Shown: positions 15,901 through 59,455 of the stretch, piece after piece
Numbering within the stretch: position 1 is the stretch's first letter
How the letters are laid out: every line of letters starts with the position of its first letter
From: Candidatus Poribacteria bacterium
GTDB lineage: Bacteria > Poribacteria > WGA-4E > WGA-3G
Length of the DNA: 64,000 nucleotides
Assembly: GCA_022825825.1 (NCBI GenBank)
Contig: JAJDWA010000037.1
Span: forward strand, 34-64,033
Reading direction: 5' to 3'
Position numbers and translations under genes: made by a program
Notes under the pieces: generated by a model
The model's input: the letters and a program-made list of their open reading frames with translations, nothing else
The model's database searches: none
What the model was told of the DNA's origin: nothing

Positions 15901-15926
15901 TGCTTTATTTCACTCTTGATGAATGA
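12912..15926 (+). CDS. ECF sigma - TM - BNR/Asp-box propeller fusion (paralogue 4)
   Basis: Same architecture, with eight Asp boxes. The RBS GGAGG lies 7 nt upstream of the ATG. Confidence 0.88.
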   Translation: MKNDDVQLIHRILDGDDTAFTELVEKYQKSVHALAWRKIGDFHIAEEITQDTFLKAYQKLGTLKKPQRFASWLYVIASRRCVAWARKKRVWTQPLEETSSLQVEKSTYSQYVIEENERTAAEAQREVVKKLLAKLPESERTVITLHYFGDMSSAEIGAFLGVSANTIRSRLRRAQHRLQKEETMIREALDHFQISPNLTDNIMREVARLKPTAPSGSKPLMPWVAAASSAILIILMLGIGSQRLVRFQKPYSLDAKAETTVELVDASVVLNLEAKPNVQDRLGNPNIVGKSNNGQKPDEVLLAASQTEGEDKVSVPKQQWTQTGAIKGSFVDSLLATSESELYVYANGHLYKLPTDGTGWQHVNDFSSLIDIWHVNRPLMAEWNNTLYIVLINKLYASNDDGKTWNVVHSWREDKYWSHRELFLTEKTFYLTFNNGIMGSEDQGKTWKDISDEFPNIPYFFVTIQDTVFAVIGSGLYRRNGDNWQRLELPGPEKLSIVSVAGTKDRLYVIGFLAHDGLIPDLDIISKAQKRTWWIFRSTDLGNSWNDITPTNAWSLKGFPPDKIVAAGETLLVMERGMVRSTDGGDTWMPSQLPGTSPSIQFSVSDNVALNEHIFYINSWEDGLTRSIDGGKTWEGVNITPDQEKDAVFNLIVDKGSNEGQNTTPTLYARVYTREATEIVKTMDAGKSWQVVQVEIPLTDPYRVPPSKIDQIVKSGDILYAKGGGDHTNRKLRLYRISADGSMLDPIQGMPTFDSTHLFHLLHLGAASRGSDKSYTEKLQKSSAGATQFFKQLAQMKQQQAEIFYKFGLQGAFAVSDDTYYMEYNFKLFRWEPGDTEWYDTGLEETFELTSDIARRKLKLAASGDTVYVGKRDGHLVVSFDRGNNWIDLTPGLPFPIKTFREILVAESTVYVATDIGIITSDDGRSWHTIADADGTNLIMEHLAADGTTVYGVTKNTGIYRLENDIWAQVVSEIPESVTSLAVDGNTLYVGTQNRGMLYFTLDE

Positions 15927-19671: not shown

Positions 19672-19702
19672 CCTTCTACCTTTCCATTTTTGAGTCCTTC
19701 CA

Positions 19703-33473: not shown

Positions 33474-34148
33474 TTAGATTTCACCATCAACACAACGCAC
33501 AACAATGTAGCAACGATTGAGTTGTGAAATTGGACTATCGTACACTCCTTCAATTTCTCCACCAAGTTTCTGTAGTGCTTTAATGCTTTGGCGAATCTCT
33601 ACATCTTTCTCACTGGATTTATATGCTACCCATCTACCTGTAGCATTGAGCAACGGTAAACAGTATTCGGCTGAGTCTACCAGTGAGGCAACGTAACGTG
33701 TCAAAACCCAGTCATAAGTCCTCATAAACGTATCGTTTTTAGCACAAATTTCAGCGCGCTTCGCTAAGACCTGAATTGGCGAATCTAAACCCAATTGAGA
33801 AACCAGATATTTGAGAAACGCCACCTTCTTATGGGAGGCTTCAACAAGTGTTAGTCGGATATTGGGGATATAGATTTTAAGTACAACCCCAGGAAATCCG
33901 GCACCGGTTCCAATGTCAATAACTGTTTGACCATCTTTAATAGCAAAATGTTCAAGAACACTGACAGAATCGAGGAAATGTTTATAAATTACTTCAGTGT
34001 TGTCGTTAAGTGCCGTTAGATTTATATGTGAATTCCACCGTTGCAATTCAGAGCGGTACACAGTCAACTGTTCAATCTGAATCGGGGTCAGTGGAAATCC
34101 GTTACTTTTGAACACTTCTTCAAGTTGATGACGGAATTGCGTTTCCAT
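33474..34148 (-). CDS. rsmG: 16S rRNA (guanine527-N7)-methyltransferase
   Basis: SAM motif DIGTGAGFPG, typical length, and position directly downstream of mnmG. Confidence 0.9.
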   Translation of the reverse strand: METQFRHQLEEVFKSNGFPLTPIQIEQLTVYRSELQRWNSHINLTALNDNTEVIYKHFLDSVSVLEHFAIKDGQTVIDIGTGAGFPGVVLKIYIPNIRLTLVEASHKKVAFLKYLVSQLGLDSPIQVLAKRAEICAKNDTFMRTYDWVLTRYVASLVDSAEYCLPLLNATGRWVAYKSSEKDVEIRQSIKALQKLGGEIEGVYDSPISQLNRCYIVVRCVDGEI

Positions 34149-34202
34149 ATTTTCTTGGCAATTATTCTAATTCAGTGTCTCAAATACCTCCATCGTATCA
34201 AA

Positions 34203-36077
34203 CTACCGGTTTTGCTGATGCAGCATCACCATTAAAATAGAGATGTCTGCTGGCGAAACGCCAGGCAGACGCGAAGCTTGTCCTATAGAGGCAGGACGGA
34301 TTTTTTCAAGTTTCTCACGTGCTTCAGTTTTCAGTCCGCGCACATCCACATAGTTGAACGTATCCGGAATGCGAAGATTTTCTAATTTTTTGAATTGGTG
34401 AATCTGTCGTTGTTGCCGTTGGATATAGCCATCATATTTTATTTGGATTTCAACCTGTTCTTTGACCGCTGGTGGTAGTTCTTCGTCTGTCGGTGCCAAA
34501 CGTGCTATGTGTTCATAACTGAGTTCAGGACGTTTGAGCAGGTCTGCTAATAACGTGGGTTGTTTTAGTTCACCTGTTTGGACGATATCTGCCAATCGAT
34601 CAATAGTTGCTGCGTTTGGAATCAAACGTGTTTCGTCTAATCGCTTCAGTTCTGCTTTGATAAACGATGCTTTCTTTTGGAATCTGCTGTATGTGTTATC
34701 ATCAACAAGTCCAATCTGTCTACCGATTTCGGTGAGCCGTAGGTCTGCATTATCTTCCCGTAACGCCAACCTATATTCCGCACGTGATGTGAACATGCGA
34801 TAAGGTTCACGGATGTCCAACGTAACTAAATCGTCAATGAGAACAGCGATATATGCCTGGGATCTATCAAGGATAAGCGGTTCTTCGCCCTTCACTTTCA
34901 AAGCAGCGTTGATGCCTGCCATAAGTCCTTGTGCGGCGGCTTCCTCATAGCCGGTCGTGCCGTTGAGTTGTCCAGCAAAATAGAGTCCGGGAACCGTTTT
35001 TGTTTCAAGTGTCGGCTGGAGTTGCGTAGCAGGGGCAAAGTCGTATTCTACTGCGTATCCAAAGCGCATAATCTCAGCGTTCTCCAAGCCTTTGATACTA
35101 TGCACCATTTCTACCTGTACATCTTCAGGCAAACTCGCTGAGATGCCGTTAAGATAAATCTCATCGGTATCTAATCCTTCTGGCTCTACAAAGACCTGAT
35201 GTTCTGTTTTTTCAGCAAAACGGGTCACTTTATCTTCAATGGAGGGGCAATAGCGGGGACCGATACCAACAATACGCCCACTGTACATCGCGGAACGGTG
35301 AAGATTTTCTTTAATTACATCGTGTGTTTTTTCATTTGTATAGGTGAGGTAACACGGCACTTGTGGCTGTGTTATTTGCTCAGTGGAGAAGGAAAACGGT
35401 AGCGGGTCTTCATCACCTGGTTGAATCTCCATCCGGCTAATGTCAATGGAATGTGCATTGACGCGGGGTGGTGTGCCTGTTTTGAGTCTACCGATCTCAA
35501 AGCCAAGATTCAGAAAACTTTCAGAAAGTTTTTCAGCGGAGGATTCGCCTGCCCTGCCAGCACTGTAAGATACATCTCCGATATGGATGAGGCCTCTCAG
35601 AAAAGTGCCTGTGGTCAGAATGACAGTATCTCCATAATATGCTGTTTGTGTTTGGCTTTTAATTCCAATGCACCGCCCATTTTCGGTTAGCAATTCTTCT
35701 ACCAACACCTGTTTTATGTCGAGGTGTTCTTGTCCTTCCAGCACACGTTTCATTTCATCTTGATAAGCTTTTTTGTCTGCCTGGGCGCGACTGGATCGTA
35801 CCGCCGGTCCCTTTTTGGTGTTCAAGCGGCGGAATTGGATGCCGGTCTTGTCAATGTTTTTTGCCATCTCCCCGCCCAGCGCGTCTATCTCTTTGACGAG
35901 ATGTCCTTTGGCGAGACCGCCAATGGCGGGGTTACAAGACATCTTGGCAATCGTATCTAAATTGATAGTTACGATGAGCGTTTCGCAGCCCATGCGCGCA
36001 GCGGCGAGTGCGGCTTCACACCCTGCATGACCTGCTCCTACAACTATGACATCGTATTTTTTATGATATGTGTTCAT
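34203..36077 (-). CDS. mnmG: tRNA uridine 5-carboxymethylaminomethyl modification enzyme
   Basis: FAD motif YDVIVVGAGHAGCEAA and a full-length GidA match. The start was trimmed to MNTYHKKYDV at 36077. Confidence 0.93.
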   Translation of the reverse strand: MNTYHKKYDVIVVGAGHAGCEAALAAARMGCETLIVTINLDTIAKMSCNPAIGGLAKGHLVKEIDALGGEMAKNIDKTGIQFRRLNTKKGPAVRSSRAQADKKAYQDEMKRVLEGQEHLDIKQVLVEELLTENGRCIGIKSQTQTAYYGDTVILTTGTFLRGLIHIGDVSYSAGRAGESSAEKLSESFLNLGFEIGRLKTGTPPRVNAHSIDISRMEIQPGDEDPLPFSFSTEQITQPQVPCYLTYTNEKTHDVIKENLHRSAMYSGRIVGIGPRYCPSIEDKVTRFAEKTEHQVFVEPEGLDTDEIYLNGISASLPEDVQVEMVHSIKGLENAEIMRFGYAVEYDFAPATQLQPTLETKTVPGLYFAGQLNGTTGYEEAAAQGLMAGINAALKVKGEEPLILDRSQAYIAVLIDDLVTLDIREPYRMFTSRAEYRLALREDNADLRLTEIGRQIGLVDDNTYSRFQKKASFIKAELKRLDETRLIPNAATIDRLADIVQTGELKQPTLLADLLKRPELSYEHIARLAPTDEELPPAVKEQVEIQIKYDGYIQRQQRQIHQFKKLENLRIPDTFNYVDVRGLKTEAREKLEKIRPASIGQASRLPGVSPADISILMVMLHQQNR

Positions 36078-36105
36078 CTTATACTTCCCACTTCCATTGT
36101 AGGTT

Positions 36106-36345
36106 TTAGGGTGTCCATGCGTCCCATTCCTTATCGCCTTCAACATCCCACCAATCTGTTGATTCTATGCTTGTTGCAATAGATGCCAGTTTCTCTGTTT
36201 CAGTCAAAAGACCATTGTCAGGAGAACAATACGCACTCAACACACCTACAAGGACATTCTCTAATTTGACCCCTTGCGTTTTGGCAATTTGGTTAGCACG
36301 TCGGTACACGGCATCGGGAATATTGAGTGTGACTTGATGTTCCAT
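36106..36345 (-). CDS. Small hypothetical protein, possibly a ribbon-helix-helix fold
   Basis: 79-aa ORF with the RBS GAAAGG. The N-terminal VTLNIPDAVYRRANQIAK resembles an RHH beta-strand plus helix. No partner toxin gene is adjacent. Confidence 0.45.
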   Translation of the reverse strand: MEHQVTLNIPDAVYRRANQIAKTQGVKLENVLVGVLSAYCSPDNGLLTETEKLASIATSIESTDWWDVEGDKEWDAWTP

Positions 36346-36457: not shown

Positions 36458-38566
36458 TTATTTCCGTATCAGCATCTTGCGCGTAGCAGTAAAATTGCCC
36501 GCGGTGAGTGTATAAAAATAGACTCCACTGGCGACCGACTCGCCAAGATTGTTTTTACCATCCCAGTGTGCCGCCCGACTGCGGTTCTGATAGAGACCCG
36601 GTGATTGATGCCCCAATGCCAAAGTTCGTACCACTGTGCCATCTATTGCATAGATAGTCAACGTGACATCGGCAGATTCTGCTAACTGATAGGGTATCCA
36701 TGTCTCAGGATTGAATGGATTGGGATAGTTCGGCAAGAGTGCAGTCTTTTTCGGGGTAAACGCTGCAAGTAGCTGCTGAAGGAAAAGAATCCCGCGTTGC
36801 GACTGTGCATCTATTAAGTTTAAGTGTTGTGCCTGAGATAACCACAGTTTGACATCTGCTGCCGTGAAGAGTCTTCCCGTCTGTGCGTAGACGGAAGGTG
36901 CTGCCGCTTTATTGCCTAATGCACCTGCAACCAGTACAAGATCAACGATATCAACGTCACCATCCCCATTAACATCCCCACTAACAACTACCGTATCACG
37001 TAAGATAATTGTTTGTCTTGGTTTGCCAAAACCTGAGGCGACGAGTTGTAAATCTAAAATATCCACAACGCCATCAAGATTAACATCCTCTCGCAGTCGT
37101 GGTACACCAACAACAGATTTTCGATTTCCAAAATAGAAACCGAGACGATCACCAGTGCTATTAACGATAACGATCTCAGACAAAGTTAGTGTTGACTCTT
37201 TAATGGCAATCACTTCAAACGTTAAGATTGCGAGTGTACCGTCCCCGCTGCTATCATCAGCGACAGAGGTTGCACCGAGTGTCACCTGATTCCCTTCAAC
37301 GACTGGTGGCACAAAAAATGCATCGGCGGGCAGGAAGTTCCCGTTGGCACTCTCCACATAGCGGAGTGCTGTATCATCAAAAATAATCTTGGCTTGATAT
37401 CCTTTAATATTCTTTCCGCCGGTAATGTCAATTTTCAAAGTTAATTTCTCCCCGATAGCCGGATCATCCACTGGTAATGGAGTGATACTTATACGAGTAT
37501 CGGGTAACTCCCACAACTCCCACAAGCGAATGGTCCTGTCCGCACTCGAACTTGCCAGTCTACTCCCATCAGGACTGAAAACTACATTATTGACACTACC
37601 CGTGTGTCCTTCAAGCGTTGCTATAGGATCACCAGAGACACCATCCCATAAACGAATGGTTCTGTCCGCACTTGCACTCGCCAGTCTACTCCCATCGGGA
37701 CTGAAAACTACACTACTAACACTATAAACTACACCATTAACACTAGGCGTGTGTCCTTCAAGCGTTGCTATAGGATCACCAGAGACACCATCCCATAAGC
37801 GAATGGTAGCGTCCCAACTCCCACTCGCCAGTCTACTCCCATCAGGACTGAAAACTACATCAGAAACACCACGCGTGTGTCCTTCAAGCCTTGCCATAAG
37901 ATCACCAGAGACACCCTCCCATAAGCGAACGGTATTATCAGAACTCCCACTCGCCAGTCTACTCCCATCAGGACTGAAAACTACACTATTGACAGAACTC
38001 GTGTGTCCTCTAAGCGTTGCTATAGGATCACCAGAAACACCATCCCATAAGCGAACGGTATTATCATAACTCCCACTCGCCAGTCTACTCCCATCCGGAC
38101 TGAAAACTACACTATTGACAGAACTCGTGTGTCCTCTAAGCGTTGCTATAGGATCACCGGAGACACCATCCCATAAGCGAACGTCACCGTCCTGGCTCCC
38201 ACTCGCCAGTCTACTCCCATCCGGACTGAAAACTACACCAGTGACAGAACCCGTGTGTCTAAGTGTTGCTATATGTGCACCAGAAACACCATCCCATAAG
38301 CCGATAGTTTTGTCAGAACTCCCACTCGCCAGTCTACTCCCATCCGGATTGAAAACTACACCAGTGACAGAACCCGTGTGTCCTCTAAGTACTTTGGATG
38401 GAATATTTTGCGCGAACGTGGTCTGTGGTCCAAAAGTTAGTAACAATAAGATAGCTAAAGTTATGGTAGATTTTAGAAGGATTTGGACACTCTGTCCTGG
38501 CGAGGTTAGGAAACCTCGCCTACCGAGGATCATAAAATGTGTTTTTTTCATCAGTTTTCCTTTCAT
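36458..38566 (-). CDS. WD40 propeller - cohesin-like - double dockerin - T9SS C-terminal sorting domain protein
   Basis: About seven WD40 repeats (GHTxSVxxVVFSPDGSRLASGSxDxTxRLWD). A cohesin-like module follows (ISITP...LTLKIDITGGKNIKGYQAKIIFDDTALRY). Dockerin loops are DVNLDGVVDILDL and DVNGDGDVDIVDL. The C-terminal NYPNPFNPETWIPYQL...IYAIDG...WDGKN..GE.VASGVYFYTL matches the T9SS/FlgD-Ig type CTD. The start could instead be at 38551 or 38533, where MILGRRGFLTS resembles a Tat motif. Confidence 0.85.
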   Translation of the reverse strand: MKGKLMKKTHFMILGRRGFLTSPGQSVQILLKSTITLAILLLLTFGPQTTFAQNIPSKVLRGHTGSVTGVVFNPDGSRLASGSSDKTIGLWDGVSGAHIATLRHTGSVTGVVFSPDGSRLASGSQDGDVRLWDGVSGDPIATLRGHTSSVNSVVFSPDGSRLASGSYDNTVRLWDGVSGDPIATLRGHTSSVNSVVFSPDGSRLASGSSDNTVRLWEGVSGDLMARLEGHTRGVSDVVFSPDGSRLASGSWDATIRLWDGVSGDPIATLEGHTPSVNGVVYSVSSVVFSPDGSRLASASADRTIRLWDGVSGDPIATLEGHTGSVNNVVFSPDGSRLASSSADRTIRLWELWELPDTRISITPLPVDDPAIGEKLTLKIDITGGKNIKGYQAKIIFDDTALRYVESANGNFLPADAFFVPPVVEGNQVTLGATSVADDSSGDGTLAILTFEVIAIKESTLTLSEIVIVNSTGDRLGFYFGNRKSVVGVPRLREDVNLDGVVDILDLQLVASGFGKPRQTIILRDTVVVSGDVNGDGDVDIVDLVLVAGALGNKAAAPSVYAQTGRLFTAADVKLWLSQAQHLNLIDAQSQRGILFLQQLLAAFTPKKTALLPNYPNPFNPETWIPYQLAESADVTLTIYAIDGTVVRTLALGHQSPGLYQNRSRAAHWDGKNNLGESVASGVYFYTLTAGNFTATRKMLIRK
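37531..38395 (-). repeat. Intragenic tandem repeats (~126-nt period) encoding the WD40 blades
   Basis: The string ccagtctactcccatcNggaNtgaaaactaca recurs about eight times at ~126-nt spacing. Adjacent blades are nearly identical at nucleotide level. Confidence 0.85.
38499..38520. repeat. Hairpin repeat with conserved GGTTAGGAAACC core (copy inside the 5-prime end of the WD40 ORF)
   Basis: GGCGA-GGTTAGGAAACC-TCGCC. The same 12-nt core occurs at 52621-52646 and 52663-52688 with different but self-complementary flanks. Confidence 0.6.
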
Positions 38567-40889: not shown

Positions 40890-41489
40890 TTACACTGCGC
40901 GTCTGCCTTCCAAAGCCTTCGCAAGGGTTACTTCGTCAATGTACTCCAAGTCCCCTCCAACAGGAATACCGTAGGCGATTCGTGTAACACTTACCTGAAA
41001 CTGCTCAAGATGTTGCGTAAGATAAAGTGCCGTTGCTTGTCCTTCTGTGTCCCAGTTGGTCGCGAGGATAACCTCTTTGACGGTTCCATTGTGGACTCGA
41101 TTAAAAAGAGAATCTATTCGTAGAGAATCTGGGCCGACTCCATCTAATGGCGATAAAACGCCGCCGAGCACATGATACAACCCTTTGTGGCTTTCAGTCC
41201 GTTCTATTGCCCATAAATCATCCGGTTGTTCAACAACACAGATAATCTGTGGGTCACGTCTCGGATTTGAACAGATATGACACGGGTTTATGTCAGTAAT
41301 AGTACCACATATCTTGCAATCTGACAAGTTTTCTTTAACTTCTAAGATCGCTTCTGCGATTTGTTTGGTCTCAATGTCCGGGAGTGTTAGCATAAAAAAA
41401 GCTAAACGTTGCGCGGTTTTGGGACCAACCGTAGGAAGTTTCTGAAGCTGCATGATAAGCCGCTCCAACGGTTGTGGATAGCCTTGCAT
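40890..41489 (-). CDS. recR: Recombination protein RecR
   Basis: HhH N-terminus, C4 zinc finger CKICGTITDINPCHIC, Toprim domain. Conserved dnaX-ybaB-recR synteny. Confidence 0.93.
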   Translation of the reverse strand: MQGYPQPLERLIMQLQKLPTVGPKTAQRLAFFMLTLPDIETKQIAEAILEVKENLSDCKICGTITDINPCHICSNPRRDPQIICVVEQPDDLWAIERTESHKGLYHVLGGVLSPLDGVGPDSLRIDSLFNRVHNGTVKEVILATNWDTEGQATALYLTQHLEQFQVSVTRIAYGIPVGGDLEYIDEVTLAKALEGRRAV

Positions 41490-41506
41490 GTTTTTGCCTA
41501 TTGCTG

Positions 41507-41815
41507 TTACGGAAGTCCCGGAATCTTAAAACCACCTGTGAGTTTGCTCATCTCATCAGACATCAGTTCTTGTGATTGTTGCAATGCCTCATTCACAGCT
41601 GCCACAACTAAATCTTCAAGCATTTCAGTGTCATCAGGGTCAACAACTTCTGGTGTAATGCGGAGTGAAACGAGTTCTTGTTGCCCATTGACCACTGCGG
41701 TGACCATGCCGCCTCCGACGGTTGCTTCAATCGTCTGGTTCGCGAGTTCTTCACGGATTTCAAGCATGCGCTTTTGCATCTGCTGCGCTTGCTTCATTAA
41801 GTCATTCATTTTCAT
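41507..41815 (-). CDS. ybaB: Nucleoid-associated protein YbaB/EbfC
   Basis: 102 aa with MNDLMKQAQQMQ and VTAVVNGQQELVSLRI. Sits between dnaX and recR. Confidence 0.92.
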   Translation of the reverse strand: MKMNDLMKQAQQMQKRMLEIREELANQTIEATVGGGMVTAVVNGQQELVSLRITPEVVDPDDTEMLEDLVVAAVNEALQQSQELMSDEMSKLTGGFKIPGLP

Positions 41816-41860
41816 AATTGTAAATGATTCCGATTCTCAAAGAGAACTGGAAATATCTCC

Positions 41861-43627
41861 TTATTGAGTTTCTAAAATTCTTGCGTCAAATAGGTCAAGC
41901 ACGGGTCTGATCTGTTCATCTTCTTCGGCTTGCTGTCTACGCATCATAGGTGTTGTTTTCACTTTTTCCTCAACCGGTTCAAGGGTTTCTTCGGGTTGTG
42001 CTACTGCTTCACCCTTGATAAGTTCAATCTGAACCGGTTTTCCTAAAGCCTCTTTAAATGCCTTGGTAATATCTGCTATTGCCTCATTATAATTTAAAAA
42101 AAACGCTCCTTCAGGATAAATAATATTAATTTGATCTTCTCCTTCTACCTTTGGAGTCGCATCCCTGAGTGCGCCATGAACTAAAGAAGGCGAAATTTCC
42201 TTAAGCCGTGATTTGACCTCTTCCCAAATAGTGGGCAGCTCGTCCAAACTACGAACTGCTATTTGATCGGATTGATTCGTATTTGACACCGATTCACTAT
42301 TTTCTACTACGGGACTTGGAGGTGTTTGAGATGCAATTTCTGATTCTTGTATGGAACGGGTAGGACTATCTACTTCAAAAACCGGTTCCAGGGTTTCACC
42401 GCTGCGGAGGCTGCTGGGAAGTGGCGGATTTGGTGTAGGCTCTGATTCGCTACTATCAATTTTCTGTTCTAAGGCAACAAGTTTACGGATAATTTCATCA
42501 AGTTGAATGGTTTCATTTATTGTGTTGATCTGAATTAGCGCATTTTCAAGTTGTAATTGGGCATAACCGTATTCTTTGATTTCACGGTTGGCATGCATCA
42601 GAATTTTGATAATTCGCGATAGTCGGTCTACTGATATCTGTTGTGCTTTTTCCTTGAGTTCGGATAGTTCAGATTTTGGGTTTTGAATAAGTTCATCAAG
42701 TTGGCTATCAACAGCAAGGAGTCGTAGGTCGCGAAAGTATGTGATGAGTTGATGCAGGCATTGTGTCAAATCCATTCCTTGTTTAGATAGTTTGTTTAAT
42801 GTAGCGAGTCCCGAAGCAAGGTTGCGTTTTTCGATTGCCTCCGAAAGTTCGTGAAGTAGTAAATTTGAACCGTGTCCAAGTGTCTCTTGAACGTTTGTTA
42901 GTGTTAACTCTTTCCCCGCAGATGACACTAAGCGTTCAAGAAGGTTCTCGGCATCACGGAGACATCCTTCGGATTGACGTGCGATGAGGGCAAACACGCC
43001 ATCATCTGCCGAAATCTTTTCATCATCAGCTATAAGCTGTAAGCGAGAAACTATTTGCTCAGGGATGAGATGGCGAAAGTCAAAGTCTTGACAACGGGAG
43101 ATAATGGTTTTTGGGATTTGGCCGTGTTCGGTAGTTGCCATGATGAAGATAACATGCGGTGGTGGTTCCTCAAGTGTTTTCAGTAACGCATTGAAACCTT
43201 CCGTTGTTAGCATGTGAACTTCATCAATAATGTAGATTTTATATTTATAGGCTGCGGGAGAAAGTTTGACGTTCTCACGGAGGTCCCGGATTGTGTCAAT
43301 GCCACGATTGGAAGCAGCGTCCATCTCTATAACATCAAAAGATGATCCTTGGGTTATCTCTCTACAAGCATCACATTCATTACACGGTTCACCTGTAATT
43401 ACTTGCTCAAATTCAGTTTCTTGCGTGGGGTTCAGACAGTTGACCGCTTTGGCGAAGAGGCGTGCCACTGTCGTTTTACCTGTACCTCTTGGTCCCCAAA
43501 AAAGGTATGCATGACCAAGACGCTCGGACCGAATTTGGTTCTGTAACGTACTGGTTACGTGCGCCTGTCCAACAACATCGCTGAAGTACTGAGGGCGCCA
43601 TTTCTGTGCGAAAACTTCATAAGACAT
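41861..43627 (-). CDS. dnaX: DNA polymerase III subunits gamma/tau
   Basis: Walker A GPRGTGKTT, zinc module CNECDACREI, and IIDEVHMLT. Confidence 0.93.
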   Translation of the reverse strand: MSYEVFAQKWRPQYFSDVVGQAHVTSTLQNQIRSERLGHAYLFWGPRGTGKTTVARLFAKAVNCLNPTQETEFEQVITGEPCNECDACREITQGSSFDVIEMDAASNRGIDTIRDLRENVKLSPAAYKYKIYIIDEVHMLTTEGFNALLKTLEEPPPHVIFIMATTEHGQIPKTIISRCQDFDFRHLIPEQIVSRLQLIADDEKISADDGVFALIARQSEGCLRDAENLLERLVSSAGKELTLTNVQETLGHGSNLLLHELSEAIEKRNLASGLATLNKLSKQGMDLTQCLHQLITYFRDLRLLAVDSQLDELIQNPKSELSELKEKAQQISVDRLSRIIKILMHANREIKEYGYAQLQLENALIQINTINETIQLDEIIRKLVALEQKIDSSESEPTPNPPLPSSLRSGETLEPVFEVDSPTRSIQESEIASQTPPSPVVENSESVSNTNQSDQIAVRSLDELPTIWEEVKSRLKEISPSLVHGALRDATPKVEGEDQINIIYPEGAFFLNYNEAIADITKAFKEALGKPVQIELIKGEAVAQPEETLEPVEEKVKTTPMMRRQQAEEDEQIRPVLDLFDARILETQ

Positions 43628-46730: not shown

Positions 46731-46988
46731 TTGCTAACTGCGATTCCAACCCTATCGTTCTTCTATGCGCACACAAGGGAATAATTATAATGAATTATAA
46801 GCAAGTATTGCGGGGGGTATGGCTATGGACTTCATCTCACAACCATTTTAGGCACACCCCTCAAATAGGTAGTGTGCAAGATATATTTGAGGTCCTATAA
46901 GTTATTGATATTGTTTTTGTAAGTATATCAGATGTTTAATAGAAATTCAATCGTTTTTCGAAATTGGATTAGGGTAGGGAAATTAGAA

Positions 46989-47011
46989 TGAGCAGGCACA
47001 GTGCCTGCTCA
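46989..47011 (-). terminator. Perfect palindromic hairpin just downstream of the sigma-FtsZ-PolIII ORF
   Basis: TGAGCAGGCAC-a-GTGCCTGCTCA, giving about 10-11 bp of stem. It starts 19 nt after the stop codon, and the following minus-strand sequence is U-rich (ATTCTAATTT). Confidence 0.55.
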
Positions 47012-47029
47012 TAAGGTAGGAAAGATGTG

Positions 47030-50000
47030 TTATGCTGTAAGAGCATTAAATGCACCTGAGGCGATAAGATTTTCAATGACTTCCTCATTCATCTCTGTTG
47101 AATCAAAACGATCACGGAAATCTTGAATCGATGTGAATAAACCGTCCTGATTTCTTTTCGCAAGAAGCAAATCTATTACTTCATCACTCACGCCTTTGAG
47201 AGCAACAAAGCCGAAACGAATATCGTTGCCATCTACGATGAAGTGCTTTTCACTCACGTTGATATCAAGCGGTAACAGATTAATTTCTACATCCAAAAAT
47301 TCAGCGAGTCTCACACATTCAAATTGGTAACGCTTGATCTTTTCCTTATCTGCTGACTCTCCAGTCATCAACGCCGCCATAAATTCATGCGGATAATGTG
47401 TTTTAAGATATGCCATCCTGTATGCCAACATAGAATAAGTAACCGAGTGTGATTTGTTAAAAGCATATCTGCCAAACTGTTGAAGCAGGTCAAATACCTC
47501 TTCTGCTTCTTTGGTGGCAATCCCCTTTTCAACCGCACCATTGATAAATTTTAGACGTTGTTCTTTGAGCACATCTACTTTCTTTTTTCCGATTGCAGCG
47601 CGGAGGATATCTGCTTCACCAACCGTGAACCCGGCAACATCGCACGCAATCTGCATCATCTGTTCCTGATAGATACAGACACCGTAAGTGTTTTTAAGGG
47701 CATCCTCAAACGACGCATGCAGATAAGTCACCGATTCTAATCCATTTTTTCGGTTGATAAACTGCTGCATCATACCGCTTTCTAACGGATATGGACGATA
47801 GAGCGCAGGAATTGCTGAAAAATCCTCAAAATTATCCGCTTTGAGCTGTGCAACAACCGTATACATTCCAGCAGAGGTTTCCAGTTGGAATAACCCAGCG
47901 ATCAACCCTCTACTGATGAGTGAATAAGTCTTTTTGTCCTCAAGTGGAATATCTTCAAGGGTAATCTCGCGACCACGGTTTTCCTGAATCATATTGAGAC
48001 AGTCAGCAACCTCTGAAAGACTTCGTACACCAAGCGTATCAAATTTAATGAGGCCGACATCTTCAACCGTTTTTGCTTCAAATTGCGTTGCGACTTGTCC
48101 ATGTCTATCCTTGAAAATTGGAGCGTAATTCGTAAGCGGTCCGTCCGAAATGATAATTGCAGATGCATGACAAGAAACATGCCGTTTCATACCTTCTACT
48201 GCTTTACTAATTTCAATTAACTCTCTATTTTCAGGAAGTTCAGCAAGTTTCTGAAATTCAGGCGCTTGTGCAAGAGCATCATCAAGCGTAATATCCGGCT
48301 GGCTTGGAATTAGTCTTGTCAAGGTATCTATCTTATCAAGAGGAATTTCAAGGGCGCGTCCAACATCTTTGATAGCAGTTTTTGCCCGCAACATAGTAAA
48401 GGTAGCAACTTTACCTACAGAATCATGACCGTATTTTCTCACAAGGTAATCAATCACATCGTCACGTGCATGATCGGCAAAATCGATATCAATATCTGGC
48501 GGATTCATGCTATCAAGATTTAAAAACCTTTCGAATAGGCATCCGTGATCCATCGGATTGAAATTGATCACACCGAGCGCATAAAGCACAAGGCTGCTTG
48601 CAGCAGAACCGCGAGCAGAAAGTAGATAGCCCTGTTGGTTTGCGTAGCCAACGTAATCCGCAACAATTAGGAAATAATTTGCGTATCCAGTTTGTTGGAT
48701 AACGTCCAGTTCATATTCCAATCGCTTATGGATTGGTTCGGAGAGATGTCCCCCATATTTTTCCTGCAAACTATTGTGACACTGTTCTCTTAGAAAACTG
48801 TCATGTGTATGTCCTTCGGGAATCTCAAAAATCGGCGTCACACTTTGGTCGTAGTCCAGTTTTAGATTACACCGATTGGCAATTTCAACTGTATTGATAA
48901 TCGCTTCGGGGGGATAATCCTTGAGTGCTTCACGCATTTCGTCAACATTTTTGAAATAGAATTGATTCTCAAATCGTATTCGTTTGGGGTCGTTGACGGT
49001 TTTCTTTGTCTGGATACAGAGAAGGATGTCGTGCATCCGATGATCGGATTTCCGTAGGTAGTGACAATCGTTTGTGCCGACAATAGGGAGATTGAATTCA
49101 TTTGCGAATTCCATCATCACCGGATATACCGCTAATTCCGCATCAGTGTAGTGGTTTTGAATTTCAACAAAGAGATTGTCTTCTCCCATGATGTCTCTCA
49201 ATTCTAACAAGTTTCGGACTGCTTCCTCTCTTTGGTTAGAACAAATTAGCTTCGGCACTATTCCATTAATGCACCCTGTCAGTGCTATTATGCCACCATG
49301 ATGTTCACGCAACATTTCCATGTTGATGCGTGGTTTTCTATGGAAACCTTGTGTGTATCCGAGTGATGTCAATTCTAAGAGATTATGATATCCTTCAGTG
49401 TTTTCCGCTAACAGTGTGAGATGAGAGGGTGAACATTGAGAATTACCGTCTGATTTTTCTTTTCCCGTTTCGACATATACCTCACATCCGACAATAGGGT
49501 TAACACCTGCTGCTTTAGCAGTATTGTAAAATTCCCATGCCCCGAACATGTTGCCGTGGTCTGTAAGCGCAACAGCAGGAGAACTGTTTTCAATTGCCCA
49601 TTGCACCATATCTGGAATTCGGCACGCACCATCCAGCAAACTGTACTCACTGTGATTGTGTAGATGAACAAATTCTGCACCGTTTGAAGTCGAAATAACA
49701 TTGCTTTGTACAGTAGGTATGTCACGCTCGGTGTCGGAAATAGTCCCACTCTGTCCACTCGATGAATCAATCCCGCTCGCAAGTAAAGTCACTAACACTT
49801 CATCGCTTAATTCCAACTCATCCTTGTAGACTAATCCGAAAATAGGCTGGGCATTCTTACATGTTTCGACAATTACTTTCATGGCTTGATCCAATTCGTG
49901 CATTGTGAAATTTGGTGGAGAAGCGATATTAACAATCATTATGGCGTCACCTGTAATACTGTTTTCTTCAAGTAAAGGCGAAGTAATTGCGTTTTCTGCA

Positions 50001-51322
50001 GCGATCTTTGCACGATTTTCACCTTTTGCTGTTCCTATACCCATTAGGACAGTACCTTGGCCACGCAGCACACTTTGAACATCATCGAAGTCAATATTAA
50101 TTTCCGCAGTTTGGACAAGCATTTCTGCAATGGCATTAACGCCCTGGATCAATATCTCATTGCTTTTTTGAAACGCTTCTTGCATCGGTAACTCTTGGTC
50201 AGCCAATTCCAATATACGCTGGTTCGGCACAACGATAACTGCATCCGACTGAGGTTGTAAACCGCCCTGCAGTTGCTGTAGCCCATATTCAGCTTGTTCA
50301 GTTCGGTGCTCTCCTTCAGAATCAAACGGACGCGATACAAAACATACTGTTAATGCTCCCTGTTCTCGTGCAAGAGATGCAAGTGCTGGAGCAACACCAG
50401 TGCCCGTTCCACCTCCCATACCAGCCATAACGATAACCATCTTGGCATCTGATACAATAGATCGGAGATCATCTATGCTCTCCGCAGCCGCTCTTTTTCC
50501 CAGTTCCAGATTCCCATCCGTACTTTGTCCTTGAACGGCGTTAATGCCTATTTGCACCTGTGTTGCACCGTTGCATGTGTTAAGTGTGTTCTTATCGGTA
50601 TCAACAGCACAGAATTCAAAGTTTGTCAAACCGCCTTCAATCATGCGTTTTATAGCATTGCAACCCGCTCCACCGACACCGATAACCTTCAATTTAGTTC
50701 TTACCGTATCTGATTTTTTCTGTTCAATTGACATAGTTTCCCCCTTTATAGTTTCTAACTCTACCTCAAACTCTTTGCGGAGAAGTTGTCGGACTTCGCT
50801 TAGCTTCGTCTTGACTGTACCGATCGCTAAGTCGAGTTCTTCTGCAATCTCTTTGATATTCCACAATTCGAGATAGTACAATATTGCGACAGACCGCACC
50901 CTTTGTGGCAGGTTATGCACAGCCTCCCTTGCCTCTGATCGAAGCCTTGCATCTTGAAAACGTTGTTCTGCTTCTCTATCAATCTGCAAAGCTAAATCTT
51001 CGTAGCTCAGTATAATTTCACCGTGCCGATGCAAGTTAGAGGCATAGTATCTGTTGCAAGCCGTCCGAGCAATTCGACGCAACCATCCGCCAAAACTTTC
51101 CGCTTTTCGTAACCCGATTATGTTTTCCCAAACAGCCATCCAGATGTCCATAAGAATCTCTTCCGCATCCCGTCTTTGTCTTGAATTTTCGACTACAATG
51201 TTCCAAATTCGAGGACTATAGCGGGACATCAATTCCGCGAATGCTGCTTCATCGCGGCTTTGCACAAGTCGGACTAATTCTACATCTGTTAAATTGTTTG
51301 GGGTGACAAAATTGTAGTGCAT
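47030..51322 (-). CDS. Single ORF fusing an ECF sigma factor, FtsZ, and DNA polymerase III alpha lacking the clamp-binding, OB and tau-binding C-terminus
   Basis: aa 1-190 carry sigma regions 2 and 4. aa 197-520 are FtsZ (VIGVGGAGCNAIKRM, GMGGGTGTGVAPALA, NIDFDDV, GTVLMGIGTAKGENRAKIAAENAITSPLLE). aa 550-1430 are PolIII alpha (HLHNHSEYSLLDG, PPDIDIDF, KFDTLGV, YQEQMMQIA, FNKSHS, HhH). There are no in-frame stops, and I hand-checked the sigma/FtsZ junction. Confidence 0.8.
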   Translation of the reverse strand: MHYNFVTPNNLTDVELVRLVQSRDEAAFAELMSRYSPRIWNIVVENSRQRRDAEEILMDIWMAVWENIIGLRKAESFGGWLRRIARTACNRYYASNLHRHGEIILSYEDLALQIDREAEQRFQDARLRSEAREAVHNLPQRVRSVAILYYLELWNIKEIAEELDLAIGTVKTKLSEVRQLLRKEFEVELETIKGETMSIEQKKSDTVRTKLKVIGVGGAGCNAIKRMIEGGLTNFEFCAVDTDKNTLNTCNGATQVQIGINAVQGQSTDGNLELGKRAAAESIDDLRSIVSDAKMVIVMAGMGGGTGTGVAPALASLAREQGALTVCFVSRPFDSEGEHRTEQAEYGLQQLQGGLQPQSDAVIVVPNQRILELADQELPMQEAFQKSNEILIQGVNAIAEMLVQTAEINIDFDDVQSVLRGQGTVLMGIGTAKGENRAKIAAENAITSPLLEENSITGDAIMIVNIASPPNFTMHELDQAMKVIVETCKNAQPIFGLVYKDELELSDEVLVTLLASGIDSSSGQSGTISDTERDIPTVQSNVISTSNGAEFVHLHNHSEYSLLDGACRIPDMVQWAIENSSPAVALTDHGNMFGAWEFYNTAKAAGVNPIVGCEVYVETGKEKSDGNSQCSPSHLTLLAENTEGYHNLLELTSLGYTQGFHRKPRINMEMLREHHGGIIALTGCINGIVPKLICSNQREEAVRNLLELRDIMGEDNLFVEIQNHYTDAELAVYPVMMEFANEFNLPIVGTNDCHYLRKSDHRMHDILLCIQTKKTVNDPKRIRFENQFYFKNVDEMREALKDYPPEAIINTVEIANRCNLKLDYDQSVTPIFEIPEGHTHDSFLREQCHNSLQEKYGGHLSEPIHKRLEYELDVIQQTGYANYFLIVADYVGYANQQGYLLSARGSAASSLVLYALGVINFNPMDHGCLFERFLNLDSMNPPDIDIDFADHARDDVIDYLVRKYGHDSVGKVATFTMLRAKTAIKDVGRALEIPLDKIDTLTRLIPSQPDITLDDALAQAPEFQKLAELPENRELIEISKAVEGMKRHVSCHASAIIISDGPLTNYAPIFKDRHGQVATQFEAKTVEDVGLIKFDTLGVRSLSEVADCLNMIQENRGREITLEDIPLEDKKTYSLISRGLIAGLFQLETSAGMYTVVAQLKADNFEDFSAIPALYRPYPLESGMMQQFINRKNGLESVTYLHASFEDALKNTYGVCIYQEQMMQIACDVAGFTVGEADILRAAIGKKKVDVLKEQRLKFINGAVEKGIATKEAEEVFDLLQQFGRYAFNKSHSVTYSMLAYRMAYLKTHYPHEFMAALMTGESADKEKIKRYQFECVRLAEFLDVEINLLPLDINVSEKHFIVDGNDIRFGFVALKGVSDEVIDLLLAKRNQDGLFTSIQDFRDRFDSTEMNEEVIENLIASGAFNALTA

Positions 51323-51456
51323 AAGTAGATTCCCAAATAGATTTGCTTATAAAGAGGGGAAATTTTTGGGAAACGGTTTAAAAAATATAGAAAAATTGTA
51401 GTTGAGGAATTTATTAAAGTGTTGGTGTCTGGAAAACTAATTGAAGGAAATAGAAA

Positions 51457-57393: not shown

Positions 57394-58794
57394 TTACTGT
57401 GTATCGTTTTCCACATTGCTACATTTCAAATTAATATTGCCGCCAACGCTGCGGAGTGTAAGGAGAGGACCATCCCCGTTAATAATCCCTTTCAATTGCC
57501 ATTCTTTGGAGGAATCTCCACCACTTCTAATGATCGGAAGTTCGGATGTAATATCACCGCCAATACTTCTGGCATCAAGTTTTGCTAAAATCTCCGCTAT
57601 TAACGAAACAGTGATGTCTCCACCAGCTGACTCTAAAACCCAATCATCTTGGGGTTGTCCCAATACATTGCCAACGATGGAACCACCAACGGTTTTAGCT
57701 GTAACAGGACCGTCGTTATCCAAACTTATACTTCCACCTGATGTTTCAACTGTGGCGCCTCCTTTGCATTGGATTAGCTTGACGGTGCCACCAGACGTTT
57801 CGGCAGAAATTGCTCCCACAACGTGGAAGCATTTCAAATCACCGCCAGAGGTTATAGTGACGATTTGACCAACGTGCTTGTTAATCTCAATTTTGCCGCC
57901 TGACGCTTCAACCCGAACATCGCTTTCACATCCTGTCATCTTTACATTTCCATAAGCGGTATGCCCAAAAACAGTACCTGTGATATTCTCAAAGTAAAAA
58001 TCACCCTTACTTGTTCTGCTCTGGACTATCCCGTTCACATTAACAACAGATATATCGCCACCTACGGTTTTCAAAAAAACATCATAACGAGTTTGCGGCA
58101 CTGTAATTTCAAAATGGATATCTAAACGATCAGCAATATTTTTCCAATGCCTATTCTGATCTTTGAACTTTGCATTGATACGGAGTTCTTTCCCTTTTTC
58201 GTCAAAGTTTACGTGGAAATCTTTAAGAATATCAGCAGCGTGTCTATCAGCTTTCAACTGAGCAGACCGACGGACGATGACGTTGACGACTTCGCTTTTT
58301 GCTGTCCGAACGTTAATTGTCCCGACATCTGTATTAAGGGTCAGTTTTCCATCAGGGCTTGCATTGAACGATTCATTGATATCGTCTAAAGTCTTTTGTG
58401 TCAAGAATTCAGGCATAGACTTACGAATTAAAACGCCTATTTTCCCCTCCTTCAATTCTTCACCAATATTCTCAATAAATTTTTTACCGAGAATGTTAGT
58501 CATCATATTTTTCAGATCAGATGATATACTTAATCCTTCACTGAGATAAGCCGCGAGATGCTGACAAGCGATACTAATTTCACTAAAAGCTGCATCGCCT
58601 TGTAATGGATCGAAGAGCCCCTGAGGTATTGCATCTATCTCTTTCAATCGTTCCAAGACCTTGTTAAATTGGGAGATACAGCGGTTTTCTCCGTGCTTAT
58701 GTGCTTCAGTCATTATTGAATCTTCAGCGATTTCTGCTGTCTGTTCTAATATCTGAAAGAGTCCGCGAATTTCGTTTTGTCGTTCCTGTTCCAT
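57394..58794 (-). CDS. DUF4097-type beta-helix protein with an N-terminal helical domain; candidate partner of the upstream ECF sigma
   Basis: Repeated GG-D/S-I/V strands: VGGDISV, SGGKIEI, SGGDLKC, SGGTVKL, SGGSISL, VGGSIVG, AGGDITV, IGGDITS, VGGNINL. I see no signal peptide and no TM helix. Confidence 0.7.
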   Translation of the reverse strand: MEQERQNEIRGLFQILEQTAEIAEDSIMTEAHKHGENRCISQFNKVLERLKEIDAIPQGLFDPLQGDAAFSEISIACQHLAAYLSEGLSISSDLKNMMTNILGKKFIENIGEELKEGKIGVLIRKSMPEFLTQKTLDDINESFNASPDGKLTLNTDVGTINVRTAKSEVVNVIVRRSAQLKADRHAADILKDFHVNFDEKGKELRINAKFKDQNRHWKNIADRLDIHFEITVPQTRYDVFLKTVGGDISVVNVNGIVQSRTSKGDFYFENITGTVFGHTAYGNVKMTGCESDVRVEASGGKIEINKHVGQIVTITSGGDLKCFHVVGAISAETSGGTVKLIQCKGGATVETSGGSISLDNDGPVTAKTVGGSIVGNVLGQPQDDWVLESAGGDITVSLIAEILAKLDARSIGGDITSELPIIRSGGDSSKEWQLKGIINGDGPLLTLRSVGGNINLKCSNVENDTQ

Positions 58795-58870
58795 GTCAGA
58801 TACCTCATAAAAGTTAAATTTGTGTTAGGACAGTCAATTTTTCAGATTAGGCACAACTATAGCAAATTTA

Positions 58871-59455
58871 CTATAATATTTCTCCATATCCCTGTTTTTC
58901 TAAAAGTGATTTTAACAATTCCTTTGCTTTGTGAAGTCGCCATTTCACTGTCGTTAATGGAAGCGATAGAAATTCTGCTATACGTTTTTGCGGCATATCT
59001 GCCCAATAATAGAGTTTGATAACTTCCTGAAATTCAGTGGGTAAGGAGTTAATTCCATCTCTGACTGCTTCATGTGTGGATTCCTGAACTAAAATCTGCG
59101 CGGGATCAGAAGATGCTGGCTCTGCTTCTACTTGCAATTCTGCGTCTATATCTTCATGAAATTGAAATCTGCTTGATCGTTTCATGAATCGCAACGCTCG
59201 GTTCCGAGTTATCGAATAGAGCCACGAACCAAACCGATTCAAATTATCCAGCTGGGGTAACGCTTCAAAAGCGAGTAGAAAAGCGTCTTGAACAATATCT
59301 TCTGCCTCTGTTGGATTACGGACGACGTTTTGTGCTACCGTCAACATCGCTCGCTGATACCGAAGCACCAATTCATCAAATGCTTTGAGATTGCCAGCAA
59401 GCACCGCAATTATCAGCTCCGCATCTTCAGCATCTTTCAATTCGTCTGCGCTCAT
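58871..59455 (-). CDS. ECF RNA polymerase sigma factor (stand-alone)
   Basis: Region 2 DIVQDAFLLAFEAL...SWLYSITRNRALRFMKR. Region 4 MPQKRIAEFLSLPLTTVKWRLHKAKELLK. Confidence 0.9.
   Translation of the reverse strand: MSADELKDAEDAELIIAVLAGNLKAFDELVLRYQRAMLTVAQNVVRNPTEAEDIVQDAFLLAFEALPQLDNLNRFGSWLYSITRNRALRFMKRSSRFQFHEDIDAELQVEAEPASSDPAQILVQESTHEAVRDGINSLPTEFQEVIKLYYWADMPQKRIAEFLSLPLTTVKWRLHKAKELLKSLLEKQGYGEIL

Follow-up and report, generated by a model that had tools for sequence, protein, structure and literature searches.

An ECF Sigma Factor, an FtsZ-Type GTPase and a DNA Polymerase III Alpha Core in a Single Gene of Candidatus Poribacteria

Introduction

It is already known that sigma factors of the extracytoplasmic function (ECF) type can carry C-terminal extensions, and such an extension is, according to ECF surveys, typically accompanied by the absence of an anti-sigma factor (PMC7826278). 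In phage T4 late transcription, the sigma-like protein gp55 and the co-activator gp33 are coupled to the sliding clamp gp45, and transcription is hence replication-dependent (PMC2988020; PMC7892883); MuC of phage Mu was recently reported to use the beta clamp similarly (PMC12867686). We describe here a gene of Candidatus Poribacteria in which an ECF sigma factor is joined to an FtsZ-type GTPase and to the core of the DNA polymerase III (Pol III) alpha subunit. It lies in a stretch of 64,000 nucleotides of contig JAJDWA010000037.1 (assembly GCA_022825825.1), hereafter “the window”, and was first pointed out by a model reading the letters of the DNA without database searches (the original prediction). 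Poribacteria are uncultured, largely sponge-associated bacteria. Sequences of this kind are public under generic names; what is new is an ECF extension built from FtsZ and a Pol III alpha core. The original prediction knew of no described protein joining a sigma factor, FtsZ and a replicative polymerase core, and our full-text literature search likewise found no paper describing the sigma-FtsZ-Pol III alpha architecture.

Gene Structure and Domain Content

An uninterrupted open reading frame (ORF) of 1430 codons occupies positions 47030..51322 of the window on the minus strand, from an ATG start to a TAA stop at 47030-47032; translated on the plus strand, the same interval contains many stops. 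The gene and its parts are as follows.

47030..51322, minus strand: complete ORF for sigma, FtsZ and Pol III alpha core (ORF call, Pfam, NCBIfam)
50753..51322, minus strand: ECF sigma module, residues 1-190, with sigma2 at 51038..51232 and sigma4 at 50774..50935 (Pfam, TIGR02937)
50699..50752, minus strand: linker 1, residues 191-208, containing an internal Shine-Dalgarno (SD) sequence and the ATG of Met197
49763..50698, minus strand: FtsZ-type GTPase module (Tubulin and FtsZ_C), residues 209-520 (Pfam, PDB matches)
49676..49762, minus strand: linker 2, residues 521-549, derived from the C-terminal linker of FtsZ and running into residue 2 of the polymerase paralogue
47033..49675, minus strand: Pol III alpha (DnaE1-type) core, residues 550-1430 (Pfam, NCBIfam, PDB alignment)
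49151..49666, 48029..48796, 47522..48016 and 47039..47284, minus strand: PHP, palm/thumb, fingers and HhH sub-domains of the polymerase, respectively
46988..47012, minus strand: terminator-like hairpin with an 11-bp stem, a 3-nt loop and a T-rich tail, 18 nt past the TAA

All eight Pfam domain calls exceed their curated gathering cut-offs. In the sigma part, Sigma70_r2 matches residues 31-95 (29 bits versus a cut-off of 24) and Sigma70_r4_2 residues 130-180 (32.9 versus 25.7), with Sigma70_r4 also above its cut-off, and the N-terminus scores 65.1 against TIGR02937 (sigma70-ECF; cut-off 42.9). The fused sigma thus has the composition of an ECF (group 4) sigma-70 factor, i.e., sigma2 and sigma4 with neither sigma1.1 nor sigma3. 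The FtsZ part is covered by Tubulin (residues 211-374, 124.8 bits) and FtsZ_C (423-519, 61.3 bits), and the polymerase part by PHP (553-724), DNA_pol3_alpha (843-1098), DNA_pol3_finger (1103-1267) and HHH_6 (1347-1428). The single unbroken frame and the three module assignments of the original prediction are borne out by the ORF call and by these Pfam and NCBIfam searches, in which every module finds a profile, and each of the sequence motifs that it quoted is present in the ORF.

AlphaFold2 modelling of residues 1-560 predicts an FtsZ fold (predicted local distance difference test, pLDDT, 82-93), an all-helical sigma (60-83) and disordered linkers (pLDDT below 50 at residues 181-206 and 519-560, ranging from 26 to 47, with 26-28 for linker 2), a model that fits the earlier idea of modules held together by flexible linkers. 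Linker 1 is 29% conserved; linker 2, rich in S/T/G/Q, is 20% conserved and in frame everywhere. At the FtsZ/polymerase junction, the sequence SSE/FVHLH corresponds to the canonical DnaE N-terminus MSSEFVHLH minus its Met. No conserved start codon is found at this junction across loci. In the window, the in-frame ATG, GTG or TTG codons nearest before Phe551 are codons 503, 509 and 511, all inside the FtsZ fold and each unconserved across loci, in agreement with the earlier remark that no in-frame start shortly precedes the PHP domain. Because the junction has neither a start codon nor an SD signal, the fusion of FtsZ to the polymerase is obligatory, and because a terminator-like hairpin follows the stop codon, the truncation of the polymerase is a genuine gene end.

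Conservation and Selection

The window derives from a metagenome assembly, and some gene calls among the homologs cover just part of the protein (P0110, P0112, P0118-P0121), two points in favour of an artefact, be it a chimeric assembly, lost stops, sequencing-error frameshifts or a decaying pseudogene cluster. However, the identical protein is found in the NCBI/ENA contig and in a further ENA scaffold, and a one-step variant of 1430 aa in an independent Logan assembly of SRR14652024. The homology search returned more than 100 protein clusters with 58-89% identity and the same sigma/Tubulin/FtsZ_C/PHP/Pol III alpha domain set, originating from many studies and technologies, complete long-read chromosomes included, and many of the homologues lie on contigs of 4-6.7 Mb. 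The source-supplied organism names of these clusters are all Candidatus Poribacteria, and the product names are “DNA polymerase III subunit alpha” or “cell division protein FtsZ”. In a scan of the GTDB species representatives, the full fusion was found in 16, which are Poribacteria metagenome-assembled genomes only, several of them complete chromosomes. The same domain order, which the original prediction suggested looking for in related genomes, is thus recovered with one ORF per orthologous locus, and the synteny of the fusion is kept, stable among metabolic genes, over 62-100% identity. As for the sigma-less gene calls examined, that of P0112 is accounted for by a frameshifted upstream sigma ORF that overlaps its start on a long-read contig of 12x coverage, and that of P0110 starts within the FtsZ fold; they are best read as gene-calling artefacts.

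Motif conservation was computed over 108 full-length homologs. The sigma frame stays open into FtsZ in 108/108, and linker length varies in whole codons throughout (15 loci, 108 homologs). Residues of sigma regions 2 and 4 are nearly invariant, the FtsZ motif GGGTGTG and the T7-loop aspartates (N-x-D-x-x-D) are kept in 102-108 homologs and the PHP metal ligands in 100-108, while conservation of the palm aspartates (Asp943, 945, 947 and 1095) and of the finger motifs equals that of the PHP ligands. The PHP ligands, palm aspartates and finger motifs, which had been described as full and intact in the window's gene, are therefore nearly invariant in its relatives too. Ratios of nonsynonymous to synonymous substitution (dN/dS; Nei-Gojobori method, close pairs) are 0.11-0.18 for sigma, 0.16-0.25 for the FtsZ module, 0.07-0.11 for PHP, the lowest of all modules, and 0.15-0.18 for the polymerase core; those of both linkers range from 0.2 to 2. 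These values show purifying selection on each of the three modules, whose active sites are intact. Given the conservation of the catalytic residues, turnover by the enzymes (GTP hydrolysis, nucleotidyl transfer and PHP exonuclease) would belong to the function rather than being a relic.

Both junctions, moreover, coincide with domain boundaries, and the ORF is flanked by a conserved promoter-like block and by the terminator-like hairpin. Recurrence, in-frame changes of linker length, motif conservation and dN/dS far below 1 in all modules exclude, for practical purposes, an artefact or a pseudogene, to which we give next to no credence. The fusion is one genuine gene, and its conservation spans the phylum Candidatus Poribacteria.

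The Polymerase and FtsZ Modules Compared with Canonical DnaE and FtsZ

The polymerase module reaches the DnaE1 equivalog NF004226 (1044 bits versus a cut-off of 1002), covering model positions 4-885 of 1146, and aligns end to end with residues 5-891 of the E. coli alpha subunit (2HNH, 2HQA), as well as with M. tuberculosis DnaE1 and Taq alpha. Both limits uphold the C-terminally truncated Pol III alpha of the original prediction: the C-terminal 260-290 residues or so of DnaE are absent, and the protein, which ends in ...IASGAFNALTA, stops about 30 residues short of the internal clamp-binding motif and is devoid of the OB fold and of the tau-binding domain. Two other identities were considered and rejected. 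The module is not an error-prone DnaE2/ImuC polymerase, as NF004225 is not reached (588 bits versus a cut-off of 939) and no imuA/imuB-like genes occur among the neighbours of the fusion. Nor is this one half of a split dnaE: no separately encoded DnaE C-terminal half was found near the fusion, downstream of which there are only the terminator-like hairpin and a PhyH gene.

A full-length dnaE, which it had been proposed to look for in the same genome, does coexist with the fusion. Record OZ244889.1 carries, 650 kb apart, the fusion (L003) and a stand-alone DnaE of 1176 aa (L018) that starts MSSEFVHLHNHSEYS and carries, beyond SGAFD, the clamp motif QMNLF followed by an OB fold and a C-terminal domain; such a pair is also found in eight further genomes. 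In the comparison of fused and canonical DnaE identities, which leaves out the rows of genome CBDCOJ, the fused polymerase is 68-72% identical to its own genome's canonical DnaE versus 36-39% to actinobacterial DnaE, and over the same genome pairs, copies of the fused polymerase are 81-88% identical and those of canonical DnaE 89-96%. In a distance tree, the fused polymerase modules of every architecture form one clade inside the Poribacteria DnaE radiation.

Further DnaE paralogues were met along the way. Additional proteins of 1090-1166 aa (L039 9995..13267, L041 and L051 10037..13537) adjoin SRAP/YedK-like genes (MCGRYT...); those of L039 and L041 lie on contigs of about 66 kb in long-read assemblies, which may be extrachromosomal elements. 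The genome CBDCOJ has four DnaE-type genes.

The best PDB matches of the FtsZ module are FtsZ proteins (E about 1e-75). The original prediction had called it a bona fide FtsZ, which holds for the fold and the catalytic motifs and has to be qualified on three counts: the module scores just below the cut-off of the FtsZ equivalog TIGR00065 (289.9 versus 295.2 bits), it lacks the C-terminal tether peptide that binds FtsA/ZipA, its linker leading straight into the polymerase, and it has evolved faster. Its closest unfused relative in an exhaustive search of the representatives is a stand-alone FtsZ of 449 aa (P0123, 57% identity), whose family (424-462 aa) includes proteins named Poribacteria FtsZ and ends in the anchor peptide DW[DE]IPAFLRVQKR. 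The canonical Poribacteria ftsZ belongs to a division and cell wall (dcw) cluster, murD-ftsW-murG-murC-x-ftsA-ftsZ, and record ctg522441l (4,917,018 bp) carries both the dcw ftsA-ftsZ pair and the triple fusion, so that the canonical ftsZ beside ftsA, which had also been suggested as something to look for, is found in a fusion-bearing genome. The fusion itself, as had been stated, is not part of a dcw cluster; its neighbours code for an ABC permease and a PhyH dioxygenase. Identities over the same genome pairs are 97-99.7% for the canonical FtsZ core versus 83-87% for the fused module, which by this measure evolves much faster than the canonical Poribacteria copy. Within a genome, fused and canonical FtsZ are 65-67% identical, versus 43-47% with the FtsZ of other phyla.

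The two enzymatic modules, as these sequence relationships show, derive from duplicated copies of the ftsZ and dnaE genes of the lineage itself. Because the genome keeps a canonical dcw ftsZ and a full-length dnaE, the fusion is accessory and is not the division or replication machinery itself; canonical genes on the same chromosomes rule out that it is the housekeeping copy, and what had been offered earlier as an inference, an accessory paralogue, is now documented for both enzymes.

A Probable Internal Start at the Sigma/FtsZ Junction

Two candidate ribosome-binding sites, each paired with an in-frame ATG, are relevant to the products of the gene.

51330..51334, minus strand: weak SD sequence GGGAA for the annotated start ATG at 51322..51320 (anti-SD pairing)
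50746..50740, minus strand: internal SD sequence AAGGGGG, followed by the in-frame ATG of Met197 at 50734..50732

Met197 is invariant in 108/108 homologs despite the poor conservation of the linker in which it lies, and a strong SD sequence (AAGGGGG, AAGGAGG) stands 5-8 nt before its codon at every locus. The anti-SD pairing energy is -10.1 kcal/mol for Met197, versus a mean of -4.9 for the annotated start (16 loci) and -2.0 +/- 2.5 for random positions within the ORF, only 0.55% of which reach a pairing as strong; no other in-frame start of the ORF is preceded by so strong an SD sequence as Met197. One FtsZ-less ortholog has GTG instead of ATG at this position with the SD sequence kept, and it is therefore the start function, rather than the methionine, that is conserved. 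These signals suggest that the gene probably yields two products, the sigma-FtsZ-Pol III alpha' protein of about 160 kDa and, from Met197, a sigma-less FtsZ-Pol III alpha' protein of about 138 kDa, and that the latter is probably the more abundant.

One could go further and regard the shorter protein as the working unit, which would modulate division or replication. FtsZ-Pol III alpha' would then co-polymerise with canonical FtsZ and place a gap-filling polymerase or exonuclease at the division ring, or poison the assembly of this ring for lack of a tether peptide, the sigma frame serving mainly translational or transcriptional control and the full-length fusion being a minor by-product. The far stronger internal SD sequence, the persistence of the start even as GTG, the obligatory fusion of FtsZ to the polymerase, and an FtsZ module that retains its GTP-binding and T7 residues without an FtsA-binding tail would all fit such a scheme. 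Yet the sigma frame is open into FtsZ in every full-length homolog, across a variable linker that is always in frame; sigma is present in every architecture of its family's genes under constraint (dN/dS as given above), unlike a mere leader ORF; and the sigma-less gene calls are best read as artefacts. On balance, we consider this scheme quite improbable.

A Promoter-Like Motif Upstream of the Genes of the Fused Sigma's Family

The region upstream of the fusion gene contains the following element.

51347..51382, minus strand: promoter-like block consisting of TTTAAACC (51382..51375), a 17-nt spacer and CCTCTTTATAA (51357..51347), proposed as -35 and -10 elements

The upstream regions cannot be aligned between loci except for a block of about 75 nt, ATTTTTTTAAACC-N17-CCTCTTTATAAC...GGGAAT...ATG, which aligns in 15/15 loci. 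Its core, T[TA]AAACC-N17-19-CTC[TA]TTA, has 22 matches in 1.9 Mb of Poribacteria DNA versus 0.4 expected by chance, and each of the 22 precedes, by 26-30 nt, the ATG of a member of the fused sigma's gene family, whatever its architecture or locus. This is the case for the triple fusion, for sigma-FtsZ genes (L068, L069), for sigma-polymerase genes at another locus (L086, L087) and for a sigma-tubulin paralogue of 409 aa (L088), in which the spacer has diverged and both boxes are retained; the motif was also confirmed for the L085 gene. The matches being confined to fusion-family genes, no further motif-bearing, i.e., target, gene was found in the 1.9 Mb searched. Since, among the genes sampled, TTTAAACC-N17-CTCTTTA stands before all paralogues of this sigma family and before nothing else, it is strongly indicated that the block represents -35/-10 elements read by the encoded sigma, which would amount to autoregulation of the ECF type. 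No anti-sigma gene or domain was found among the adjacent genes of the fusion, the ABC permease and PhyH dioxygenase genes already mentioned.

Architectural Variants and Sister Fusions

The fused sigma is found in several further architectures. A large clade of the fusion ends before the HhH domain (1345-1356 aa). In P0111, which occupies the equivalent syntenic position, the FtsZ core has been deleted in frame down to short remnants, and P0117 is a sigma-polymerase fusion at a different genome position, in two assemblies. L068-L070 and P0124 are sigma-FtsZ proteins of 594-595 aa with a degenerate PHP stub. The same sigma family is kept in all these variants. The paralogue of 409 aa (L088 13007..14236), with a sigma 61% identical and the same junction and promoter motif, has no polymerase, and its FtsZ part is limited to the N-terminal GTPase half. 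Conversely, P0052 (1743 aa, 25 member sequences; L035 10001..15229) consists of the triple fusion plus about 313 extra C-terminal residues, which are unrelated in sequence to DnaE and are thus not the missing DnaE C-terminus; they may represent a fourth module, or else translation that continues into the gene downstream.

Replisome and divisome parts are combined in other ways as well. The FtsZ search turned up P0131, in which a complete beta sliding clamp (DnaN) is joined to FtsZ. Such clamp-FtsZ fusions (P0131, P0413-P0424; L089 10001..12082, record s99.ptg000103l) measure 687-710 aa and have an FtsZ without tether peptide; the L089 gene adjoins a sigma-54 activator gene, on a chromosome that also has a canonical dcw ftsZ. 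Fusions of an ECF sigma to a complete DnaN clamp, of about 572-576 aa, make up dozens of Poribacteria clusters (P0425-P0509; L088 8001..9719), some of them named Poribacteria DNA polymerase III subunit beta, and keep DnaN's own Met at the junction. One genome can hold several of these proteins, such as the triple fusion, a sigma-clamp fusion and a sigma-tubulin paralogue in record ctg194533_75x_c. The sigma of the sigma-clamp proteins was found to be 62% identical to that of the sigma-transmembrane-BNR proteins encoded elsewhere in the window (described below), to whose family it belongs, and to share only 28-32% identity with that of the triple fusion, which rules out a common sigma family for the two kinds of fusion. 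Going by their sequences, the triple fusion is one member of a wider set of sigma/FtsZ/clamp/polymerase fusions in Poribacteria.

The FtsZ representative search also returned P0249 (806 aa), in which a TIR domain, a Ser/Thr protein kinase and FtsZ are combined in one protein.

As tubulins, sigma factors and DnaE-type polymerases occur in certain large phages, we considered whether the fusion might be a module of a mobile element, of a phage or of an anti-phage defence system. The Pol III alpha, sigma and PhuZ tubulin families of PHROG do match its modules, generically, and paralogous copies with the same promoter motif are found at other loci. Against this, PADLOC defence models returned 0 families at E <= 0.01, no relative was found in 2.9 million viral contigs, the synteny among metabolic genes is chromosomal and stable, and the modules are nearest to the FtsZ and DnaE of the host rather than to those of other phyla (identities given above). 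With PHROG matches that are only generic and nothing from viral contigs or PADLOC, we rejected this origin as very improbable.

Proposed Function

The reading that we favour, and hold to be somewhat probable, is that of a regulatory tether: an autoregulated ECF sigma whose enzymatic extension ties it to FtsZ polymers and to DNA. Its parts are those documented above, and the mechanism joining them is proposed. The protein would be a “one-component” ECF sigma, with sigma as the output and the C-terminal FtsZ-polymerase extension in place of an anti-sigma factor. The FtsZ module would polymerise in a GTP-dependent manner with itself, with the sigma-less isoform or with canonical FtsZ, and the polymerase core would bind and process DNA 3' ends. 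Availability or location of sigma would in this way be tied to the state of the FtsZ polymer and of the DNA, and transcription coupled to the cell cycle or to DNA gaps. The sister fusions (sigma-FtsZ, sigma-Pol III alpha', sigma-beta-clamp and beta-clamp-FtsZ) suggest that these modules belong to one functional network.

Several observations weigh against this proposal. No part of the protein is more constrained than the polymerase and PHP active sites, though a regulatory sensor would not need them; their conservation hints at a role as a DNA-synthesis or exonuclease effector that a model of sigma regulation leaves unexplained. HhH is lost in a large clade, and the FtsZ core or the whole polymerase in other lineages, so that no single extension module is indispensable. 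The motif search in 1.9 Mb fits autoregulation and yields no target genes. Finally, because the sigma of the sigma-clamp proteins is of a different ECF family (28-32% identity), it is the logic of domain co-fusion only that speaks for one network.

The constraint on the active sites is what one would expect if the roles were reversed and sigma were a targeting device that brings a clamp-independent, FtsZ-clustered Pol III core to RNA polymerase (RNAP) at promoters. In this alternative, short transcripts or R-loops would be extended into DNA, so that transcription would prime replication, repair or the filling of gaps, a process in which the accessory clamp fusions might take part. The near invariance of the palm triad, fingers and PHP ligands and the minimal dN/dS of PHP agree with RNAP-tethered synthesis, as do the equivalence of the module to the catalytically competent E. 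coli alpha 1-910/917 fragment, the occurrence in the phylum of sigma-beta-clamp and beta-clamp-FtsZ fusions beside a fused polymerase without a clamp motif of its own, and the persistence of sigma-polymerase fusions after loss of the FtsZ core. The sigma-clamp proteins, however, use a sigma of another ECF family and, as an RNAP core takes one sigma, clamp and polymerase could not be co-recruited through it; the duplex-binding HhH is lost in a large clade, and some lineages keep sigma-FtsZ without the polymerase. The stronger internal ribosome-binding site implies, in addition, that most polymerase molecules are sigma-less. We regard RNAP-tethered synthesis as rather unlikely, yet as the main rival of the regulatory tether.

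At a broader level, the fusions can tentatively be viewed as a new accessory machinery in which replisome (Pol III alpha core, beta clamp) and divisome (FtsZ) paralogues are covalently wired to ECF sigmas and to each other, a reading in which we place rather low confidence. The fusion would then be a filament-forming DNA polymerase able to dock on RNAP, and synthesis might be targeted to promoters or scaffolded by the polymer, which we likewise find doubtful. That FtsZ-FtsZ assembly would substitute for the missing clamp and tau contacts is a conjecture of the same low standing. If such wiring were true, it would be a novel means by which a bacterium physically links transcription and DNA synthesis to the assembly of a cytoskeleton.

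Maintained by purifying selection over the whole phylum with its active sites intact, covalent association of this kind is strong “Rosetta-stone” evidence that sigma, FtsZ and polymerase activities cooperate physically in Poribacteria cells, and the fusion, with its promoter-like motif, two predicted isoforms and separable modules, offers a concrete, clonable handle on a possible coupling of gene expression with DNA synthesis and FtsZ assembly. It also draws attention to an unexpected wealth of paralogues of replisome and divisome proteins (as many as four DnaE genes, with additional clamps and FtsZs), and it carries a warning for annotation, as generic DnaE or FtsZ labels would mislead pipelines based on marker genes or metabolic reconstruction.

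Genomic Neighbourhood

Other genes of the window deserve mention. Four tandem paralogues of about 1000 aa, 56-63% identical, lie on the plus strand (3186..6194, 6455..9511, 9676..12711 and 12912..15926); each consists of an ECF sigma (r2 and r4), one transmembrane helix around residues 221-239 and some 760 aa with BNR/Sortilin-Vps10 beta-propeller matches. Giant C-terminal extensions on ECF sigmas thus appear to be a habit of this genome. A conventional sigma/partner pair is also present 7.5 kb upstream of the fusion, where a stand-alone ECF sigma of 194 aa, only 29% identical to the fused one, is followed by a DUF4097 protein (57394..59455, minus strand).

Only about 3.4 kb downstream of the fusion are dnaX (tau/gamma clamp loader) and recR (40890..43627, minus strand), with mnmG/gidA and rsmG/gidB further on (33474..36146, minus strand); the proximity of dnaX does not extend to genomes further removed (L083, L084). 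Eukaryote-like repeat proteins are represented by a WD40 protein of 702 aa (36458..38566) and a leucine-rich-repeat protein of 884 aa with a dockerin (23896..26550), and an ORF of 1253 aa is without any Pfam match (15973..19734), all three on the minus strand.

Comparison with Known Systems

The closest described relatives in terms of architecture are the ECF sigmas with C-terminal extensions, such as ECF41, ECF42, ECF56 and ECF238 (Casas-Pastor et al. 2021, PMC7826278). Like them, the fusion has an N-terminal sigma2-sigma4 core with a long extension after sigma4, no adjacent anti-sigma gene and a gene-specific promoter-like motif consistent with autoregulation. The known extensions are small sensor or regulatory domains (SnoaL-like, TPR, Cys-rich or transmembrane), whereas that of the fusion comprises about 1240 residues and consists of two enzymes with conserved active sites, the FtsZ GTPase and the Pol III alpha core, with a conserved internal start predicted to yield the extension without sigma. 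A tubulin/FtsZ or Pol III extension goes unmentioned in the main text of the ECF surveys consulted, that of PMC7826278 included. The known repertoire of ECF regulation is thereby widened from small sensor domains to whole enzymes.

The FtsZ module shares with canonical FtsZ (TIGR00065) the Tubulin and FtsZ_C domains, GGGTGTG and the catalytic aspartates of the T7 loop; unlike canonical FtsZ, it is located outside the dcw cluster, scores below the equivalog cut-off, has a polymerase on its linker instead of a C-terminal peptide and evolves many times faster than the Poribacteria copy of canonical FtsZ. An accessory FtsZ paralogue without the C-terminal peptide also exists in magnetotactic bacteria, where it is called FtsZm. 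The polymerase module resembles the E. coli alpha 1-910/917 crystal constructs (2HNH, 2HQA) in having PHP, palm, thumb, fingers, HhH and the full catalytic set, and differs from DnaE1 alpha in being naturally truncated and deprived of its own start codon, in being joined to FtsZ and sigma, and in coexisting with a full-length DnaE.

With the T4 and Mu systems, the fusion has in common that a promoter-specificity factor is physically coupled to a part of the replisome, an analogy of function that implies no homology. The coupling in these phages is viral, non-covalent and mediated by clamp-binding peptides, whereas the Poribacteria partners are covalently fused cellular paralogues and, in the gene of the window, are FtsZ and a polymerase rather than a clamp. 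By the same analogy, it is the sigma-beta-clamp fusions of Poribacteria that look like a covalent version of the coupling between T4 gp55 and gp45.

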